NCBI RefSeq assembly: GCF_024223415.1
Contig: NZ_CP100500.1
From: Escherichia coli
GTDB lineage: Bacteria; Pseudomonadota; Gammaproteobacteria; Enterobacterales; Enterobacteriaceae
Direction: 5' to 3' (one strand)
DNA: 64,000 nucleotides
Part shown: positions 3,246-48,681 of the stretch, in pieces
Layout of the letters: the number at the start of each line of letters is the position of its first letter
Numbering within the stretch: position 1 is the stretch's first letter
Notes under the pieces: generated by a model
The model's database searches: none
What the model was told of the DNA's origin: nothing
The model's input: only the letters and a program-made list of their open reading frames with translations
Position numbers and translations under genes: made by a program

Positions 3246-4064
3246 TCAGCGCAGGCTCTCCAGCAGCGTTTCTGCCATCACCCACAATGCGCGGTTGAGC
3301 CTAATGTCCGTGTCGATGCTGTGAATGGCACGGGTGTGGATACGTTTTCCTTTAGCGCTGCGACCGGAAATCCCGCCTTTCAGCATATTCTCCTGGATGG
3401 TCTGATATGCACTCCACAGGTCCTTACCGTAATCCTCCCTGCGTCGTGGCGTCAGAATGTCGGCGGTGGTGACCGGCTGATGTTCGTCACCATAACGGTA
3501 AGTCAGTGCCGCCTGTGCCAGCGCCTGACGTGCCGGTGGCGGCAGGACCAGAGACTGCATGGCATCACGCTTTTCCTCAATCCGGTCAAAAACGCCCACT
3601 ACCTCGTAAGCCCCTTCAATGACTCTGTCCACCACATTTCCCCGGTGGGGCACACGGACTTCCCCCAGAGACTGACCGCAGACGCAGCCGTTCTGGCAGA
3701 CGAATCTGAAGTAACCCGGCAGCATCTGGTAGCTGGAGGTACCGTCATGGGAGTTGAGCAGAATAATTTCAGGGACATGTTGTCCGGTTATCTCCCCGGC
3801 CCGCCGCAGACGCAGCATGTGTCTGGTGTATCCCCGGCGGCCCGGGTCGCGCACGCGGGTCTGGCAGGCGAAGAATGGCTGAAAACCTTCCCGCTGCAGG
3901 CTTTCCAGTACGGTGATGGTGGGAATGTACGCATAGCGTTCACTGCGGGAGGTATGCCGATCTTCCCCAAAAATACTGGGTACATAGTGCATCAGTTCTT
4001 CATGTGTCAGCGGACGGTCACGGCGTATCTGGTTTACATGACCAAAACGACTTGCTAATCGCAT
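3246..4064 (-). CDS. DUF932 family protein (YfjQ/YafZ-like)
   Basis: 272-aa ORF in the conserved position downstream of the island GTPase. Confidence 0.8.
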   Translation of the reverse strand: MRLASRFGHVNQIRRDRPLTHEELMHYVPSIFGEDRHTSRSERYAYIPTITVLESLQREGFQPFFACQTRVRDPGRRGYTRHMLRLRRAGEITGQHVPEIILLNSHDGTSSYQMLPGYFRFVCQNGCVCGQSLGEVRVPHRGNVVDRVIEGAYEVVGVFDRIEEKRDAMQSLVLPPPARQALAQAALTYRYGDEHQPVTTADILTPRRREDYGKDLWSAYQTIQENMLKGGISGRSAKGKRIHTRAIHSIDTDIRLNRALWVMAETLLESLR

Positions 4065-6174: not shown

Positions 6175-7323
6175 ATGGCTAAAAACAAAGGTATCTGTCG
6201 GAATAAAAAATGCAGCAATCCTGTTTCAGAATTTGATGAGGCAAATGCCCTGAGGTTATGTGATGATCATTATCAGTTATGGAAACGAAATAAAGAGAAC
6301 CGTCGGGTCAGGAATATTTGTCGTATAATCAGTAAATATGACAAAAGTCTGGACCGGGAGATATTTGACAGAGTAATAGATGCTGCAAGAAATCAAACGG
6401 GAAAGAGAATTGTTGAGGACGCAAAAATATTACATCAATTGCGCAATTCAAAGCAAGTAAGAAAAAGTCTTCATAATGGAGTACTCCGGTCACGGGAATG
6501 GCTCAATACACAGGAGTTACTGAGAAGAAAAAATATATCTGTTACAGGTGACTCATTTAAATCTTACATAAAGGATATTGTCAGATTATATTGCTATAAG
6601 TTTCTCTACAGCAGAGAATATCTTAATGAAAACGCATACAAAAAACAATATCAGAGAGTTATTAACCCCAGAGAATTTAATGTTCCGATACTTCAACTTG
6701 AAGTTGCATGGATCAATAATAATTGCCGTTCAAGTGATTCAAGCTCTGATATTATCATCCTTCCCAGGATGATAAGAAGAATGGTTGTATTTAATGATAC
6801 GAAGATAAATAAACAATTAGAGGAAATGTTGGGGGGGATAGCACGAAAAAAAGTCGCAGTAAGGAATAAAGGCGGTCTCTATACCAGAATAAAAAAAGAA
6901 AATGATTTTCGTTCTATGGATAGATTTATGGTGGAAATCGAAAATATCATAAGACCTGAAATATTTCCGACATCAATTTACCCGCCTTTTTCACTTTCAT
7001 TTATCGAGAGAGAATTGCCACTACTGAATCTGGCGCACTCACAGTACAAAAGAGCAATAAGTAAAAAAGTGGCGAATTCAATTTTTTATACTTTGCGAAA
7101 AACTCACGTGGCATTATGGCTGCATCTTGAAATGTTTGCTCTTGTGGCATTCATCAAACTGTATACAGGAAAAGGGTTTGAATTCATGAAAAACATGTGT
7201 GTATTTATAGATTATGATAAAGGGATAATAAAATCCACGCATGAAGAACTGCTGAGTGAAATTAAGTGTAACATTCAGTTGAATTTAAAGGTGAATCCTG
7301 ATAATTTTCCTGAATTAATATAA
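6175..7323 (+). CDS. Orphan hypothetical protein, 382 aa, AT-rich
   Basis: Long uninterrupted ORF in markedly AT-rich DNA; N-terminal Cys/His cluster (C8, C13, C29, H32), Lys/Arg-rich body, hydrophobic segment near the C-terminus; no family recognised by eye. Confidence 0.6.
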   Translation: MAKNKGICRNKKCSNPVSEFDEANALRLCDDHYQLWKRNKENRRVRNICRIISKYDKSLDREIFDRVIDAARNQTGKRIVEDAKILHQLRNSKQVRKSLHNGVLRSREWLNTQELLRRKNISVTGDSFKSYIKDIVRLYCYKFLYSREYLNENAYKKQYQRVINPREFNVPILQLEVAWINNNCRSSDSSSDIIILPRMIRRMVVFNDTKINKQLEEMLGGIARKKVAVRNKGGLYTRIKKENDFRSMDRFMVEIENIIRPEIFPTSIYPPFSLSFIERELPLLNLAHSQYKRAISKKVANSIFYTLRKTHVALWLHLEMFALVAFIKLYTGKGFEFMKNMCVFIDYDKGIIKSTHEELLSEIKCNIQLNLKVNPDNFPELI

Positions 7324-18256: not shown

Positions 18257-18507
18257 GTAAGAACCGACCGCCGTATGTAGCCATTAAGCCAGTATTGGTA
18301 ACGTAGGTGCCCACCTTTTCAAACTGGTGGACGCCTGTTATGGAGCAAAAACATTATCCGCAGAACCCCGCAGATCATTTTCAAATGAGTTAAACTTCAA
18401 ATGGTTAAACTGGTTTTGCAACCAGGAGCCTCTGTTGCCCGTATTGCCCGGGAACACGATATCAATGATAACCTCCTGTTCAAATGGCTCAGACTCTGGC
18501 AGAACGT
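18257..18507 (+). mobile_element. IS66-family left-end fragment (terminal repeat plus truncated orf1)
   Basis: GTAAGAACCGACCGCCGTATGTAGCCAT matches the left ends at 31477 and 37679; encodes ...IAREHDINDNLLFKWLRLWQN then similarity stops. Confidence 0.6.
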
Positions 18508-18593
18508 AAGGTAAAGGGAGATGAAAAAGGCAATAGCAGAACTGAGTGACAGTGAAACCATTCTGGCGTACAGGGTTGGATGGTGAAACTGAT

Positions 18594-33978: not shown

Positions 33979-34784
33979 GCGTCAATACGGTGCTCCGTTG
34001 ACGCTTACCGTTTACCGGATAATGAGCGAAAATATCCTGTTGTTACATGACAAACCATCACGACCGCAGCGGGAACATAAAGGCCGAATATCGGTAAGGA
34101 AAGCGACCAGCGTTGATGTTCTGATGGCTTTGAGTTCGGTTGCGATGATGGCGAAAAAGTCCGGGTTACGTTCGCTCTGGACTGTTGCGATCGTGAAGCT
34201 ATCGACTGGGCATCCAATACGGGAGGTTACAATAAAGCGACAGTGCAGGATGTGATGTTAGGAGCGATAGAAAAACTCTTTGGCGATAAAGTACCGGAAC
34301 AGTCCATCCGGTGGTTGACAGATAACGGTTCAGCGTATAGAGCGCATGAAACACGGCAGTTCGCCAGAGAGTTGGATCTGGAGCCCTGCACAACGGCAAT
34401 CAGCAGCTCTCAGAGTAATGGAATGGCAGAAAGGTTAGTGAAAACGATGAAGGAAGACTACATTGCGTTCATACAGAAACCGAATGTAATAACGGCATTG
34501 CATAACCTTGCATAGGCGTTCGAGAATTACAATGAGAACCACCCGCATAGTGCGTTAGGTTATCTCTCACCACGGGAATATCGATGTCAGCGGATAACGT
34601 CACCTTAGATGTAGCAGTTGCCAAACAGTGACTCAAGGGCAGGCTTACCGCATACACTGACACTTAGCGGATCGACAGAATATTATTAACAGTTCATCAC
34701 TGAACGCTACATAATCAGAGTTGCATAAATAAAATGTTATGTTATAACATTTTAATACCGACATATGTTTTCGGATGTATATGA

Positions 34785-37565: not shown

Positions 37566-37811
37566 TAATACTATTCCTGCCCTGTAATTTACGGGCAGGG
37601 TATATCAACCGGAAATAGCCTACTGACATCCATGTATAAAGCCACATAATTATTTTGTTGATGTATCTTACCTAATACGTAAGCGTAAAGCCAATGCCGT
37701 CTGTAACTCCTGATCCTTGCAGACTAAATGTAAGCGCCCTATCAGCGACGTCTTGTGAAAATTGTCCTGTCTGGCAACAATTGCGCCCATCTATATTGAT
37801 GGACACGAACG

Positions 37812-38486
37812 ATGAATTCCCAGACAACAAAAGATATTCTCTGCTTCCGTTCTTATTTGCCTGATGCCCTACGTTTAAGATTTGAAGATAAACTGACTAT
37901 CCGAGCCATCGCTCAGCGTCTAGGTCTCAGTCATTCCACAATACATACGCTTTTTCAGCGATTTCTTGCATCCGGTATCGCATGGCCATTGCCCGATTCA
38001 GTTTCATTCGCTCAACTTGACGCCATCCTTTATGCCAACAGAAAGAAGGAATTAACAGAGCCTCAAATCAGAGAAGGCTCATGGCGAAAAGAACGGCGAA
38101 CCAGCTATAGCCGTGAATTTAAGGTCCGTCTGGCTAAGCAGGCATTACAGCCTGGTGCTGTTGTTGCCCGGATCGCCAGAGAACACGATATCAATGATAA
38201 GCTGCTGTTTAAATGGAAAAGCCAGTACGAGGACGGCTTACTGAGCGATGATGACATACAGGAATGCATGCCTGTCCCGGTGGCACTGACTGATAAGCCA
38301 GAGCCGACCAGACCAGTTACAAATCCCTTCTGGCGTAACAAGCCTGATGAGCGCCCTGAGGGGGATCCCGGAAACGTCCCACGGTGCGAGCTGCATCTTA
38401 AATCAGGTGTGGTAAAACTGTTTGACCCTCTCACTCCGGAACTGTTACGGGCGCTAATCCGCGAAATGAAAGGGGGTACCCGATGA
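37812..38486 (+). CDS. IS66-family orf1 with about 90-aa N-terminal HTH extension
   Basis: 224 aa; IAREHDINDKLLFKWKSQY core. Confidence 0.75.
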   Translation: MNSQTTKDILCFRSYLPDALRLRFEDKLTIRAIAQRLGLSHSTIHTLFQRFLASGIAWPLPDSVSFAQLDAILYANRKKELTEPQIREGSWRKERRTSYSREFKVRLAKQALQPGAVVARIAREHDINDKLLFKWKSQYEDGLLSDDDIQECMPVPVALTDKPEPTRPVTNPFWRNKPDERPEGDPGNVPRCELHLKSGVVKLFDPLTPELLRALIREMKGGTR

Positions 38487-38830
38487 TAACGCTGCCGACC
38501 GGTACCAAAATCTGGATCATCGCTGGCATCACAGATATGCGTTGTGGCTTCAATGGCCTGGCTTCGAAGGTGCAGAACACGCTGAAAGATGACCCGTTCT
38601 CCGGGCATATCTTCGTCTTCCGGGGCCGCAGTGGCAAAATGGTGAAAATACTGTGGGCCGATCGTGATGGGTTATGCCTGTTCGCCAAACGCCTGGAACG
38701 GGGCCGCTTCATCTGGCCGGTGACCCGGGAAGGGAAAGTGCACCTGACGCCAGCTCAGTTATCCATGCTACTGGAGGGGATCGCGTGGCAACATCCCAAA
38801 CGGACAGAACGGCCTGGCATCCGGATATAA
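38483..38830 (+). CDS. IS66-family TnpB (orf2)
   Basis: 115 aa; KIWIIAGITDMRCGFNGL. Confidence 0.85.
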   Translation: MITLPTGTKIWIIAGITDMRCGFNGLASKVQNTLKDDPFSGHIFVFRGRSGKMVKILWADRDGLCLFAKRLERGRFIWPVTREGKVHLTPAQLSMLLEGIAWQHPKRTERPGIRI

Positions 38831-38849
38831 CCCGTGATAAAACAAGGGA

Positions 38850-40454
38850 ATGAACAATGAACTCCCCGACGATATTGAGCTGCTTAAAGCCATGTTGCGT
38901 AAGCAACAGAGTCGGCTTCGCCAGTATACCTGTCAGGTCGCGGGCTATGAGCAGGAAATTGAACGGCTGAAAGCGCAACTCGACAGGTTGCGTCGTATGT
39001 TGTTCGGCCAGAGTTCAGAGAAAAAGCGTCATAAGCTTGAAAATCAGATCCGACAGGCAGAAAAACGACTGTCGGAACTGGAAAACCGGCTGAACACAGC
39101 CAGAAATCTTCTGGAAGATGCATCGTCAGTCACAGATTCACCTGACACCAGTCCCCCGTCAGAAAACCCGATCGCCAGTAAGCCTGAATCCCTGGGACGA
39201 AAATCTTCACGAAAACCGCTGCCGGCAGAACTTCCCCGGGAGACACATCGCCTTCTGCCTGCTGAAACCAGTTGCCCGGCCTGTGGAGGTGTTCTGAAAG
39301 AAATGGGGGAAACAATCTCAGAGCAACTGGATATCATTAATACCGCCTTTAAAGTTATTGAAACCATACGTCCCAAACGGGCCTGTAGCCGGTGCGACCA
39401 TATTGTGCAGGCGCCGGTTCCTTCAAAACCCATTGCACGCAGTTATGCCGGAGCGGGGCTTCTGGCTCATATCGTCACCGGGAAGTATGCAGACTATCTG
39501 CCGTTATACCGCCAGTCAGAAATATACCGTCGTCAGGGCGTGGAACTGAGCCGCGCCACGCTGGGGCGCTGGACCGGTGCCGTTGCTGAACTGCCGGAGC
39601 CGCTGTATGACGTGCTGCGCCAGTATGTGCTGATGCCCGGTAAAGTCCATGCGGATGATATCCCCGTTCCGGTCCAGGAGCCGGGCAGCGGTAAAACCCG
39701 GACAGCCCGGCTGTGGGTCTACGTCCGTGATGACCGCAATGCCGGTTCGGAAATGCCCCTGGCGGTCTGGTTCGCGTACAGTCCGGACCGGAAAGGCATA
39801 CATCCCTAGACTCATCTGGCCGGTTACAGCGGAGTGCTTCAGGCCGATGCTTACGGTGGCTACCGGGCGTTATACGAATCCGGCAGAATAACGGAAGCCG
39901 CGTGTATGGCTCATGCCCGGAGAAAAATCCACGATGTGCATGCAAGAGTGCCAACCGACATCACCACGGAAGCCCTGCGGCGTATCGGTGAACTGTATGT
40001 CATCGAGGCAGAAGTCCGGGGATGTTCAGCAGAACAGCGTCTGGCGGTAAGAAAAGCCAGAGCTGCGCCACTGATGCAGTCACTGTATGACTGGATACAG
40101 ACTCAGATGAAAACACTGTCGCGTCACTCGGATACGGCAAAAGCGTTCGCATACCTGCTGAAACAGTGGGATGGCCTGAACGTGTACTGCAGTAATGGCT
40201 GGGTGGAAATCGACAACAACATCGCAGAGAACGCCTTACGGGGAGTGGCCGTAGGCCGGAAAAACTGGCTCTTCGCGGGTTCCGACAGCGGTGGCGAACA
40301 TGCGGCGGTGTTGTACTCGCTGATCGGCACATGCCGTCTGAACAATGTGGAACCAGAAAAATGGCTGCGTTACGTCATTGAGCATATCCAGGACTGGCCG
40401 GCAAACCGGGTACGCGATCTGTTGCCCTGGAAAGTGGATCTGACCTCTCAGTAA
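38850..40454 (+). pseudogene. IS66-family transposase TnpC interrupted by an in-frame TAG at 39807-39809
   Basis: Two ORFs (38850-39809, 39834-40454) in the same frame; the intact copy has Glu at this position. Confidence 0.75.
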
Positions 40455-40491
40455 ATATCAATACGGTTCTGGCGAGCCGCTTACGAACAAT

Positions 40492-42205
40492 GTGAATTAT
40501 GTTAATTATGTTTTCAGGCAGATGCTTCTCTGTCTGTTATTGTTCTGGCTGCCTGTATCCTGGGCTACCGAAAGTGGCTGGTTGCGTTCTCCTGAGAATG
40601 AGCATGCCAGTATACGGATACGTGCTGATTCCGTGGTCTCCGGGGAAACACGTGTTTTGCTGGACGTTAAACTGGATAACGGCTGGAAAACTTACTGGCG
40701 CTCACCCGGATAAGGGGGGATTGCACCGTCAGTCGACTGGAAAAGTGAAACACCGGAAGTGGAGTGGTACTGGCCTGGCCTTCACGTTTTGACGTGGCCG
40801 GCATTACCACTACGGGATATCACAACACAGTCACGTTTCCCGTGGTGTTACGTGGTATATCACCTGAGAGGATCACTGGCGTACTGACCCTGCCTGTCTG
40901 CAGCAATGTCTGTCTGCTGACCGATTACCCTTTCACTGTGAATGTTTCCACACAGGATACAACATTTGCACATGATTACGCACAGGCCATGGGGAAAATT
41001 CCGCTTTCCCATGGGGTAGCGGATTCCTTAAACGCGGTTTACCGACCTGGTGGACTGCTCATTACCGCAATACGGGCAGACGGCTGGTCATCTCCGGATA
41101 TTTATCTGGATTCTGTTGATTATGCAAGCTTCGGTAAGCCGCAGATGCAGATTGACGGCAAGAATCTGCTCGCATCTGTGCCGGTCACGGACAACTGGGG
41201 AGAGGGGGCGCCGGACCTGACTGGCCAACAAGTCACACTGGTTATTGAAAGCGGCGGCCTCGCTCAGGAAAGTACGCTTACGGTTGCGGCAGGTGCAACC
41301 AAAATAGCAGAGAATGTCTTACCTCTTTGGCAGGTCACTCTGATGGCATTAGCTGGTGGACTCATTCTTAACCTGATGCCCTGTGTATTACCGGTTCTGG
41401 GGATGAAGCTGGGCTCAGTTTTACTGGTGGAAGAGAAAAACCGTCAGCAGATTCGATGTCAGTTTCTGATGTCTGTAGCCGGGATCCTTACTTCCTTTAT
41501 GGCTCTGGCTACGTTAATGACCCTTCTGCGGCTGACAAACCGGGCTCTGGGGTGGGGGATCCAGTATCAGAGTCCCTGGTTTATTGTTCTGATGACGCTG
41601 GTTATGCTGATTTTTAGTGCCAGTCTGTTTGGCCTGTTTGAGTTCCGCCTGCCTTCCGGCCTCATGACTCGTCTGGCGACATTTGGTGGTAATGGAATGT
41701 CCGGACATTTCTGGCAGGGCGCTTTTGCGACTCTTCTGGCGACACCGTGTAGCGCCCCCTTCCTCGGTACGGCAGTGGCAGTGGCGCTGACGGCATCACT
41801 ACCCACTCTGTGGGGGATTTTCTTTGCACTGGGCGTGGGAATGAGTCTTCCGTGGCTGTTGGTGGCGTTGCGACCCGGGCTTGCGTTGTGTTTGCCCCAT
41901 CCGGGAGGATGGATGAATATTTTGCGTCGGGTGCTTGGCCTGATGATGCTGGGTTCTGCCTTCTGGCTGACAACACTGTTACTGCCACACTTGGGAGTAT
42001 CCTCACACAGTACAACGAAAGAACAGGTTGTCTGGCAGCCTCTCAGTGAACAGGCGATTAAGGAGGCGCTGGCTCAGCATAAGCGGGTATTTATCGATGT
42101 GACTGCAGACTGGTGTGTTACCTGTAAATTCAATAAATACAATGTGCTGCAAAAAGACAATGTGCAGAAGTCGCTGCAGGAGGCGGATGTTGTTGCACTG
42201 CGTGG
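40492..42205 (+). pseudogene. scsB: ScsB-like (DsbD-family) thiol:disulfide interchange gene, decayed
   Basis: In-frame TAA at 40714-40716, 5-bp tandem duplication TGGCC near 40769-40779, 3' end truncated by IS629-like element at 42206. Confidence 0.7.
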
Positions 42206-42259
42206 TGAACCGCCCCGGGAATCCTGGAGACTAAACTCCCTGAGAAAGAGGTAAACAGA

Positions 42260-42586
42260 ATGACTAAAAATACTCGTTTTTCCCCCGAAGTCCGTCAGAG
42301 GGCGATTCGTATGGTTCTGGAAAGTCAGGGCGAATATGACTCACAGTGGGCGGCAATTTGTTCCATTGCCCCAAAGATTGGCTGTACACCGGAGACTCTG
42401 CGTGTCTGGGTACGCCAGCATGAGCGGGATACCGGAGGCGGTGATGGCGGGCTCACCACCGCTGAACGTCAGCGTCTGAAAGAGCTGGAACGTGAAAATC
42501 GTGAACTGCGCCGCAGTAACGATATCCTTCGCCAGGCTTCCGCTTATTTTGCGAAGGCGGAGTTCGACCGCCTCTGGAAAAAGTGA
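42260..42586 (+). CDS. IS629-like transposase OrfA
   Basis: [30 protein letters not shown]...; 108 aa. Confidence 0.85.
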
Positions 42587-43473
42587 TGCCACTGCTGGAT
42601 AAGCTGCGTAAGCTGTACGGGGTCGGACCGGTATGCAGTGAACTACATATTGCCCCGTCAACGTATTACCACTGTCAGCAACAGCAGCATCATCCTGATA
42701 AACGCAGCGCCCGTGCGCAGCGTGATGACTGGCTGAAGAAAGAGATACAGCGCGTATACGATGAAAATCACCAGGTGTACGGTGTGCGTAAAGTCTGGCG
42801 TCAGTTGTTACGGGAAGGTATCAGAGTGGCCAGATGCACTGTGACACGTCTTATGGCGGTTATGGGTTTTGCCGATGTTCTCCGGGGTAAAAAGGTCCGC
42901 ACTACCGTCAGCCGGAAAGCCGTTGCCGCAGGCGACCGCGTAAACCGTCAGTTTGTGGCAGAACGTCCTGACCAGTTGTGGGTGGCTGATTTTACTTACG
43001 TCAGCACATGGCAGGGGGTCGTCTATGTGGCGTTCATCATTGATGTGTTTGCCGGATACATCGTGGGGTGGCGGGTCTCATCGTCTATGGAAACGACATT
43101 CGTGCTGGATGCTCTGGAGCAGGCGTTATGGGCCCGTCGACCGTCCGGCACAGTCCATCACAGTGATAAAGGTTCTCAGTATGTATCGCTGGCCTACACA
43201 CAGCGGCTTAAGGAAGCCGGATTACTGGCATCAACAGGAAGTACTGGTGACTCGTATGACAACGCGATGGCGGAGAGCATCAATGGCCTTTACAAAGCGG
43301 AGGTAATACACCGTAAGAGCTGGAAAAACCGGACAGAAGTGGAGCTGGCCACACTCACGTGGGTGGACTGGTATAACAATCGACGATTGCTGGAAAGGCT
43401 GGGCCATATCCCACCGGCAGAAGCAGAAAAAGCTTATTATGCTTCCATCGGAAACGATGATCTGGCAGCCTGA
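42583..43473 (+). CDS. IS629-like transposase OrfB
   Basis: 296 aa with HSDKGSQY and DNAMAES motifs. Confidence 0.85.
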
Positions 43474-43515
43474 GTTCACAGATAAAACACTCTCCAGGAA
43501 ACCCGGGGCGGTTCA

Positions 43516-47670: not shown

Positions 47671-47764
47671 GTAAGCGCTCCTTCTGTGCCGTCTTGTGGT
47701 GGTTGTCCTGTCTGGCAACAATCGCGTCCATCTATTGATGGACACGAACGATGAATTCTCAGAC
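47671..47764 (+). mobile_element. IS66-family left-end fragment truncated by IS2
   Basis: GTAAGCGCTCC terminus and an 80-bp match to 37738-37825, ending at the orf1 start codon where IS2 begins. Confidence 0.6.
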
Positions 47765-47775
47765 TGGATTTGCCC

Positions 47776-48681
47776 CTATATTTCCAGACACCTGTTATCA
47801 CTTAACCCATTACTGGCTTGCTGCCGTAGATATTCCCGTGGCGAGCGATAACCCAGTGCACTATGCGGATGCCATTCGTTATAATGCTCGAACGCCTCTG
47901 CAAGGTTCTTTGCTGCCGTTAACCCGTCTGGTTTAGGCATGATACTGATGTAGTCACGCTTTATCGTTTTCACGAAGCTCTCTGCTATGCCGTTACTCTC
48001 CGGACTCCGCACCGCCGTGCTCTTCGGTTCAAGCCCCAACATCCGGGCAAACTGCCGTGTTTCATTAGCCCGGTAGCATGAACCATTATCCGTCAGCCAC
48101 TCTACTGGAGACGCCGGAAGCTCGTTGCCGAAGCGGCGTTCCACCGCTCCTGGCATGACGTCCTGTACTGTTTCACTGTTGAAGCCGCCCGTAGTGACCG
48201 CCCAGTGCAGTGCCTCACGGTCACAGCAGTCCAGCGCGAACGTGACTCGCAGTTTTTCTCCGTTATCACAGCGGAACTCGAACCCGTCAGAGCACCATCG
48301 CTGATTACTTTCTTTCACAGCCACTCTGCCTGTATGTGCCCGTTTCGATGGCGGTACAGCAGGTTTTCGCTCAAGCAACAGCGCATTCTGGCGCATGATC
48401 CGGTAAACACGTTTGGCATTGATCGCAGGCATACCATCAAGTTCTGCCTGTCTGCGAAGCAGCGCCCATACCCGACGATAACCATACGTGGGCAGCTCTC
48501 CGATAACATGGTGTATACGGAGAAGCACATCCGTATCATCTGAGTGACGGCTGCGGCGACCATCTTTCCAGTCATCGGTTCGTCTGAGAATGACGTGCAA
48601 CTGCGCACGCGACACCCGGAGACAACGGCTGACTAAGCTTACTCCCCATCCCCGGGCAATAAGGGCGCGTGCGCTATCCAC
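47776..48681 (-). CDS. insD: IS2 transposase InsD
   Basis: 301 aa with DDE motifs. Confidence 0.9.

Follow-up and report, generated by a model that had tools for sequence, protein, structure and literature searches.

The 64-kb stretch of the Escherichia coli chromosome analysed here (the window) contains an IS66-family element in which tnpA, tnpB and tnpC follow one another in the same orientation (Table 1). Transposition of IS66 requires all three genes, and IS66 transposases carry DDE and CwAH motifs. Both tnpA and tnpB are intact, and the stop codon of the former overlaps the start codon of the latter at ATGA. The third gene, tnpC, is a frame of 535 codons that ends in TAA and contains a single internal stop, the amber codon TAG, which divides it into an N-terminal part of 319 aa and a C-terminal part of 214 aa. 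Translation of this frame agrees with the preliminary description, in which an otherwise full-length tnpC with one in-frame amber had been reported, and the coordinates proved correct.

Pfam analyses of the two parts identified LZ_Tnp_IS66, zf-IS66 and profile positions 1-119 (of 284) of DDE_Tnp_IS66 in the 319-aa part, and profile positions 121-283 of DDE_Tnp_IS66 together with DDE_Tnp_IS66_C in the 214-aa part. Given that the DDE_Tnp_IS66 profile is divided at 119/121, the TAG must lie within the catalytic DDE domain. When Gln is put back at the stop, the tnpC product scores 464 bits against the NCBIfam model transpos_IS66 (NF033517), for which the cutoff is 180 bits, ruling out chance as the source of the frame. 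Specifically, the TAG falls within the conserved motif G-x-H-P-Q-x-H-L and precedes the conserved LQADAY aspartate by 13 codons.

Table 1. Features of the IS66-family element, its interrupted transposase gene and the neighbouring IS66-family sequences (positions in the window)
Feature	Position	Strand	Basis
Chimeric IS66-family element, 2755 bp, with tnpA, tnpB and tnpC pseudogene	37730..40484	+	Ends by alignment to ISSfl3 (L005) and ISCro1 (L003, L004)
ISSfl3-derived left portion: IRL, tnpA, tnpB, tnpC codons 1 to ~180	37730..39390	+	Sliding-window identity
Left inverted repeat (IRL), ISSfl3 type, GTAAGCGCCCTATCAGCG...	37730..37759	+	
tnpA, 224 aa, intact	37812..38486	+	NCBIfam IS66_access_TnpA (NF038385), 279 bits; Pfam HTH_Tnp_1, HTH_23
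tnpB, 115 aa, intact	38483..38830	+	Pfam TnpB_IS66, 8.5e-39; NCBIfam IS66_TnpB (NF033819), 125 bits
tnpC pseudogene, 535 codons, one internal amber	38850..40454	+	Translation; Pfam; NCBIfam; PGAP 'internal stop' in ECCNB12-2
Approximate ISSfl3 to ISCro1 crossover, zinc-finger region of tnpC	39391..39396	+	Three-way alignment of 39300-39480
ISCro1-like right portion: tnpC codons ~183 to end, IRR	39397..40484	+	Sliding-window identity
C>T, CAT to TAT, His216Tyr, window sub-lineage only	39495..39495	+	His in 108/108 homologues
Probable second recombination tract, contains the TAG	39737..40484	+	Difference density relative to L023; differing right flanks
Amber codon TAG, from CAG (Gln320) by C>T transition	39807..39809	+	Homologue alignment; sister allele
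Right inverted repeat (IRR), ISCro1 type, reverse complement GTAAGCGGCTCGCCAGAACCG...	40455..40484	-	
51-bp remnant resembling an IS66-family left end, GTAAGCGTAAAGCC...	37679..37729	+	Adjoins IRL of the chimera
ISEc23, complete, 2532 bp	31477-34008		8-bp duplications at 31469-31476 and 34009-34016, CGTTTACC

An ISSfl3/ISCro1 chimera

Comparisons in sliding windows of 100 nt revealed that the left 1.66 kb of the element has 98-100% identity to ISSfl3 and 20-80% to ISCro1, with 19 differences from an intact copy of ISSfl3 (L005) within 37730-39350. The right 1.09 kb (~39400-40484) is 87-100% identical per window to ISCro1 and 53-75% identical to ISSfl3; overall, this portion is ~96% identical to one ISCro1 copy (L003), with 45 differences within 39400-40484. 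The best-matching parent also changes near residue 180 in the TnpC protein alignment. On these alignments, the element is a chimera of ISSfl3 and ISCro1. Assignment to one and the same IS, in the manner of ISfinder, calls for near-identity along the entire element, and no single reference IS extends along the whole length here, the left portion matching ISSfl3 only and the right portion being ISCro1-like only.

The element shares with ISSfl3 (Shigella flexneri / E. coli) the left inverted repeat, tnpA, tnpB and the first ~180 tnpC codons at 98-100% identity, as well as the three-ORF layout with the tnpA/tnpB overlap. ISSfl3, however, has its own right inverted repeat, a CAG codon in place of the amber and a target duplication, whereas the element is ISCro1-like from ~39391. 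With ISCro1 (Citrobacter rodentium / E. coli) the element shares tnpC codons ~183-534 and the right inverted repeat (~96% identity in DNA and ~95% in protein, dN/dS 0.17); the two differ in the left 1.66 kb, and the intact ISCro1 copies have CAG and 8-bp duplications.

Both ends of the element start with GTAAGCG and match each other at 18 of 30 positions, the two ends coming from different parents. Native IS66-family elements match end to end at 18-22 of 30 positions. We considered mismatched inverted repeats as evidence of immobility and rejected them, because over 30 nt the hybrid ends are about as similar to each other as those of native elements; the ends alone are thus no proof that the element is immobile.

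The flanks of the chimera, GACTAAAT on the left and GAACAATG on the right, differ from each other, which bears out the earlier report that matching target-site duplications are missing. Perfect 8-bp duplications surround ISSfl3 (TTTTCAAA, in L005) and two ISCro1 copies (GTAAAAAC and GTCTGATC), but none was found around the chimera, either in the window allele or in the sister allele described below. This pattern follows if the two ends of the chimera have each retained the DNA beside a different parental insertion. As the chimera has no duplications, its present site would not have been reached by its own transposition.

The IS66-type DDE domain in TnpC, the position of tnpA and tnpB upstream of it in the same orientation, and the GTAAGCG termini all place the element in the IS66 family. 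An 8-bp target-site duplication and an intact, translatable transposase ORF, which also belong to the definition of the family, are absent. For the duplication, the chimeric origin appears to be the best explanation, and not a place outside the IS66 family. The scsB-like DNA that forms the right flank is present in only 1 of 5426 complete E. coli genomes, and an ISCro1-like element with its own duplication beside scsB was not found. We infer that recombination took place in situ: homologous exchange between different IS66-family elements nested at the site would have brought an ISSfl3-like left part together with a right part of ISCro1 type.

Distribution and ancestry of the amber codon

The complete genome of E. 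coli ECCNB12-2 (NZ_CP033635.1) has this element at the corresponding chromosomal site, with an identical TAG and with 3 SNPs relative to the window over 3001 bases. The pseudogene is already flagged in RefSeq, as CQP61_RS24065, with the PGAP annotation 'IS66 family transposase; internal stop'. The ECCNB12-2 copy differs from that of the window in having His216 (CAT) instead of Tyr (TAT) and in the rearranged island that surrounds it. All 15 other E. coli loci that we aligned to the window (L001, from ECCNB12-2, and L009-L022, from independent NCBI, ENA and Logan assemblies) carry the TAG, without any difference at 39807. Over 37630-40600, or whatever part of it they cover, four of the 15 match the window exactly, and the right junction is the same as in the window in every one of the 15, wherever the sequence extends that far. 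Differences among the TAG-bearing loci amount to 0-10 per 3 kb.

The 319-aa product occurs on 32 contigs, as two exact variants (24 and 8 contigs). In all places listed, and as far as the contigs permit, its ORF has identical neighbours: genes for a TonB-dependent receptor and a DUF4198 protein, tnpA and tnpB before it, then a 182-aa ORF and a DsbD-like gene. Among these places, the TAG allele was not found at a second locus. The TAG has thus been recovered in a complete genome and in the independently assembled L009-L022, and its 319-aa product is known from 32 contigs. These observations are contrary to the idea that the codon is a sequencing or assembly error in a gene that is really intact, which we regard as so improbable as to be negligible. 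The possibility of a sequencing error, for which resequencing had been advised, is accordingly excluded by the 15 further assemblies. On the same comparisons, the stop arose before the strains carrying it diverged from one another, and the element appears to have been inherited vertically at a single site.

In a search for an intact version of the chimera among 5.8 billion protein clusters, we did not detect a protein with more than 80% identity to the full-length chimeric TnpC, the best match being at 80%. Exact-pattern scans with the local sequence carrying either NAG codon returned 0 matches in genome contigs and 0 in metagenome contigs. These scans of genomes and metagenomes thus recovered no donor for the 39737-40484 tract, and no CAG version of it either.

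ISSfl3 and ISCro1 both have CAG (Gln) at the codon equivalent to the TAG, as does codon 320 of a sister allele at the same locus (L023; GCA_902843545.1). In an alignment of 108 homologues, this column is occupied by Gln in 105, and by Glu (ISEc23), Arg and Val in one each; an in-frame stop occurs in none of the 108. By this comparison the ancestral codon is CAG (Gln320), and the mutation is a single C>T transition to TAG. We also considered GAG as the ancestral codon and rejected it, since Glu appears solely in the distant ISEc23, while ISSfl3, ISCro1 and the sister allele all have CAG. It had been proposed that resequencing to GAG would overturn the description of the locus. With CAG as the ancestral state, that proposal named the wrong codon.

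The Glu had been read from the ORF at 32365-33978, which does have this residue at the TAG position (HPEQHL aligned with HP*THL, the asterisk being the stop). This ORF was taken to represent another copy of the same element. It belongs instead to ISEc23, as annotated in strain GF60, whose TnpC is just 52% identical in amino acids to the interrupted TnpC. ISEc23 resembles the chimera in its IS family, in its tnpA-tnpB-tnpC layout and in its GTAAGCG termini, but carries Glu at the position occupied by Gln in the relatives of the chimera, and is bounded by a perfect 8-bp duplication. It interrupts a transposase pseudogene, for which locus L023 keeps the empty site GCGCGTTTACCGGATAATG; the perfect duplication and the empty site mark ISEc23 as a genuine separate insertion. 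A distant paralogue in the same window is thus a poor guide to the ancestral codon, and it is the nearest relatives and the sister allele that reveal CAG (Gln) and not GAG (Glu).

In the sister allele L023, the left flank of the window allele, GACTAAAT, likewise precedes the chimera, which here has an amber of its own at codon 342 (TAC>TAG; window equivalent 39875), 22 codons downstream of codon 320. With CAG at codon 320 and an amber at codon 342, this allele was disabled by a mutation other than that of the window allele. Its right flank, ATTTATTC followed by glycosyltransferase genes, differs from that of the window. The window and L023 differ at 1 position in 39396-39736 and at 33 in 39737-40484. 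This abrupt rise in differences, together with the unlike right flanks, indicates a probable second homologous exchange, in which a third ISCro1-like copy would have swapped in the last ~750 bp plus the adjoining right flank. The TAG is located 70 nt inside this tract, and may have arisen in situ or may have come with the right-end donor. In L023, the right flank ATTTATTC (6636-6643) agrees at 7 of 8 positions with the left flank GACTAAAT (3873-3880) once the latter is reverse-complemented, probably a coincidence in AT-rich DNA and not the mark of an inversion.

Predicted loss of function and alternative readings

The conserved acidic positions of HADD (269-270) precede the stop, and the conserved motifs LQADAY (D333), CxAHxRR (352-358) and NNxAE (E460) follow it. 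Based on their conservation and on what is reported by Gourbeyre et al. 2010, we take HADD, LQADAY and NNxAE to be the DDE triad and CxAHxRR to be an IS66-specific motif. Translation would end between the first conserved aspartates (269-270) and the second (333), leaving a 319-aa product that retains the leucine-zipper and zinc-finger regions and is without the second Asp, the CxAHxRR motif and the NNxAE glutamate. As all of these lie beyond the stop, we predict that the 319-aa product should be catalytically dead.

The dN/dS values relative to ISCro1, ISSfl3 and L023 are 0.15-0.25, the divergence being mostly synonymous. Most of the divergence therefore predates inactivation, and purifying selection acted on tnpC until a time not long before the stop appeared. 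The gene had been described as recently inactivated, and this holds in the sense that the event is recent relative to the divergence from its relatives. After the stop, the copy in the sub-lineage of the window has gone on decaying, as indicated by His216Tyr (Table 1); ECCNB12-2 and L009-L018 keep C at 39495 and hence His216. The genes tnpA and tnpB are intact at every locus listed, with a divergence too low to tell whether selection kept them so.

Given the comparisons presented above, we conclude that the element is very probably immobile, a chimera lying in an IS-rich E. coli chromosomal island, and that its tnpC is a plain pseudogene. The preliminary description was right in this central point, that of an inactivated copy with a single TAG in an otherwise full-length tnpC. 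Its suggested alternative was a dependence on read-through. The amber might be tolerated or even used, such that full-length transposase is made through a near-cognate tRNA-Gln or a suppressor tRNA and supports a very low, self-limiting transposition. UAG is misread by E. coli tRNA-Gln, according to the passage of PMC5289835 that cites Nilsson and Ryden-Aulin 2003, so that any leak would restore the ancestral Gln320, and insertion of Q, Y and W at amber codons has been described (PMC4333366). A U directly after the stop lowers read-through (PMC5289835), and the base that follows the TAG here is an A; the intact tnpA and tnpB would also fit an element still in use. Nevertheless, the fold of 39795-39900 (z = +0.88, with 164 of 200 shuffles folding at least equally well) gives no sign of a stimulatory RNA structure 3' of the TAG, and tRNA genes are absent from the 64-kb window. 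The TAG allele occupies no second site among the places listed, and the chimera, being without duplications, did not come to its present position by its own transposition. Moreover, the stop in the sister allele falls at another codon, the invariant His216 was lost after the stop arose, and homologues have Gln in the TAG column (105 of 108) and never a stop. We know of no programmed read-through described in IS66-family transposases. We consider the use of the amber very unlikely, and find no support for it in the unstructured RNA, the single locus, the differing sister stop or the loss of His216.

Equally hard to credit is a role for the 319-aa fragment, retained along with intact TnpA and TnpB, as a trans-acting regulator or inhibitor of other IS66-family elements. 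Shortened transposase derivatives do inhibit transposition in other IS families, as with the IS50 inhibitor protein. Both LZ_Tnp_IS66 and zf-IS66 are preserved in the fragment, no locus listed has a damaged tnpA or tnpB, and the genome contains several related IS66-family elements on which such a protein might act. The sister lineage, however, ends its TnpC at a different point, and His216Tyr alters an invariant residue inside the very fragment that would have been retained. The 0-10 differences per 3 kb among the TAG-bearing loci are, in addition, too few for selection on the fragment to be detected. Whether the locus were to modulate related IS66-family elements by a trickle of read-through chimeric transposase or by a dominant-negative 319-aa fragment, its being a retained regulator is very unlikely; if this were true, the element would have to be seen as such a regulator and not simply as a dead copy.

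With tnpC read as a plain pseudogene, for which we infer the loss of activity from sequence comparison, the importance of the locus beyond annotation is little. What is added here to the RefSeq annotation is that the element is of chimeric origin, that a second exchange tract is probable and that a sister allele exists; for E. coli IS biology, these findings are unsurprising. The locus illustrates how recombination within nests of related IS66-family elements produces chimeras, which are left without target duplications and subsequently decay through point mutations. Such chimeras can mislead both the typing of IS elements and the assembly of short reads, and in the genomic islands of E. coli they are markers of inversion or deletion sites.

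A nest of IS66-family elements

The 75 bp to the left of the chimera are present in ~141 of 5426 complete E. coli genomes. The short remnant that adjoins the chimera on this side (Table 1) belongs to the old left junction common to these ~141 genomes, and its start, GTAAGCGTAAAGCC, is comparable to the left inverted repeat of ISEc23, GTAAGCGTAAACTG. We examined three genomes with this left junction and identified several IS66-family elements at the site in each. In GPEC1258, the alignment of the ISSfl3-like element to the window stops after its first 249 bp, and genes of ISEc8 type, of ISCro1 and of other IS66-family elements come next. Strain 104 has a similar short remnant, annotated as such, and then other IS66-family genes; in APEC IMT5155, a complete ISCro1 separates the DUF4198 gene from that remnant.

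Tight clusters of substitutions within otherwise near-identical copies of the tnpC pseudogene were found at two of the aligned loci, with 8 substitutions in L013 (window equivalent 40125-40175) and 3 in L016 (40269-40295). Both clusters have the look of short patches introduced by gene conversion from other paralogues of the IS66 family. Taken with the several IS66-family elements at the site and the fragments in the window, the conversion-like patches show that substrates for recombination between paralogues are abundant here.

The window contains further pieces of such elements. Another ISSfl3-like left end lies at 47671-47764 and is 84% identical to 37730-37825, the start of tnpA included; it stops at ~47764, beside an IS3-family fragment (47763-48651). 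A tnpA-like IS66-family fragment at 18262-18511 is 70-78% identical to parts of ISEc23 and of the chimera.

To the right of the chimera, the scsB-like gene of the DsbD family (40492-42254) is itself a pseudogene, frameshifted and with an internal stop according to the RefSeq annotation of ECCNB12-2. An IS3-family element of ~1.3 kb (42203-43515) lies inside this DsbD/Scs-like pseudogene region, and no clear target duplication could be read at its ends. It is 98% identical to an element found elsewhere in ECCNB12-2, which lacks it at this position.

The window is rearranged around IS elements relative to ECCNB12-2. Specifically, 28623-31608 and 33789-34554 align in inverted orientation to DNA downstream of the TRAP transporter genes of that genome, an arrangement that suggests IS-mediated inversions across 28623-34554.
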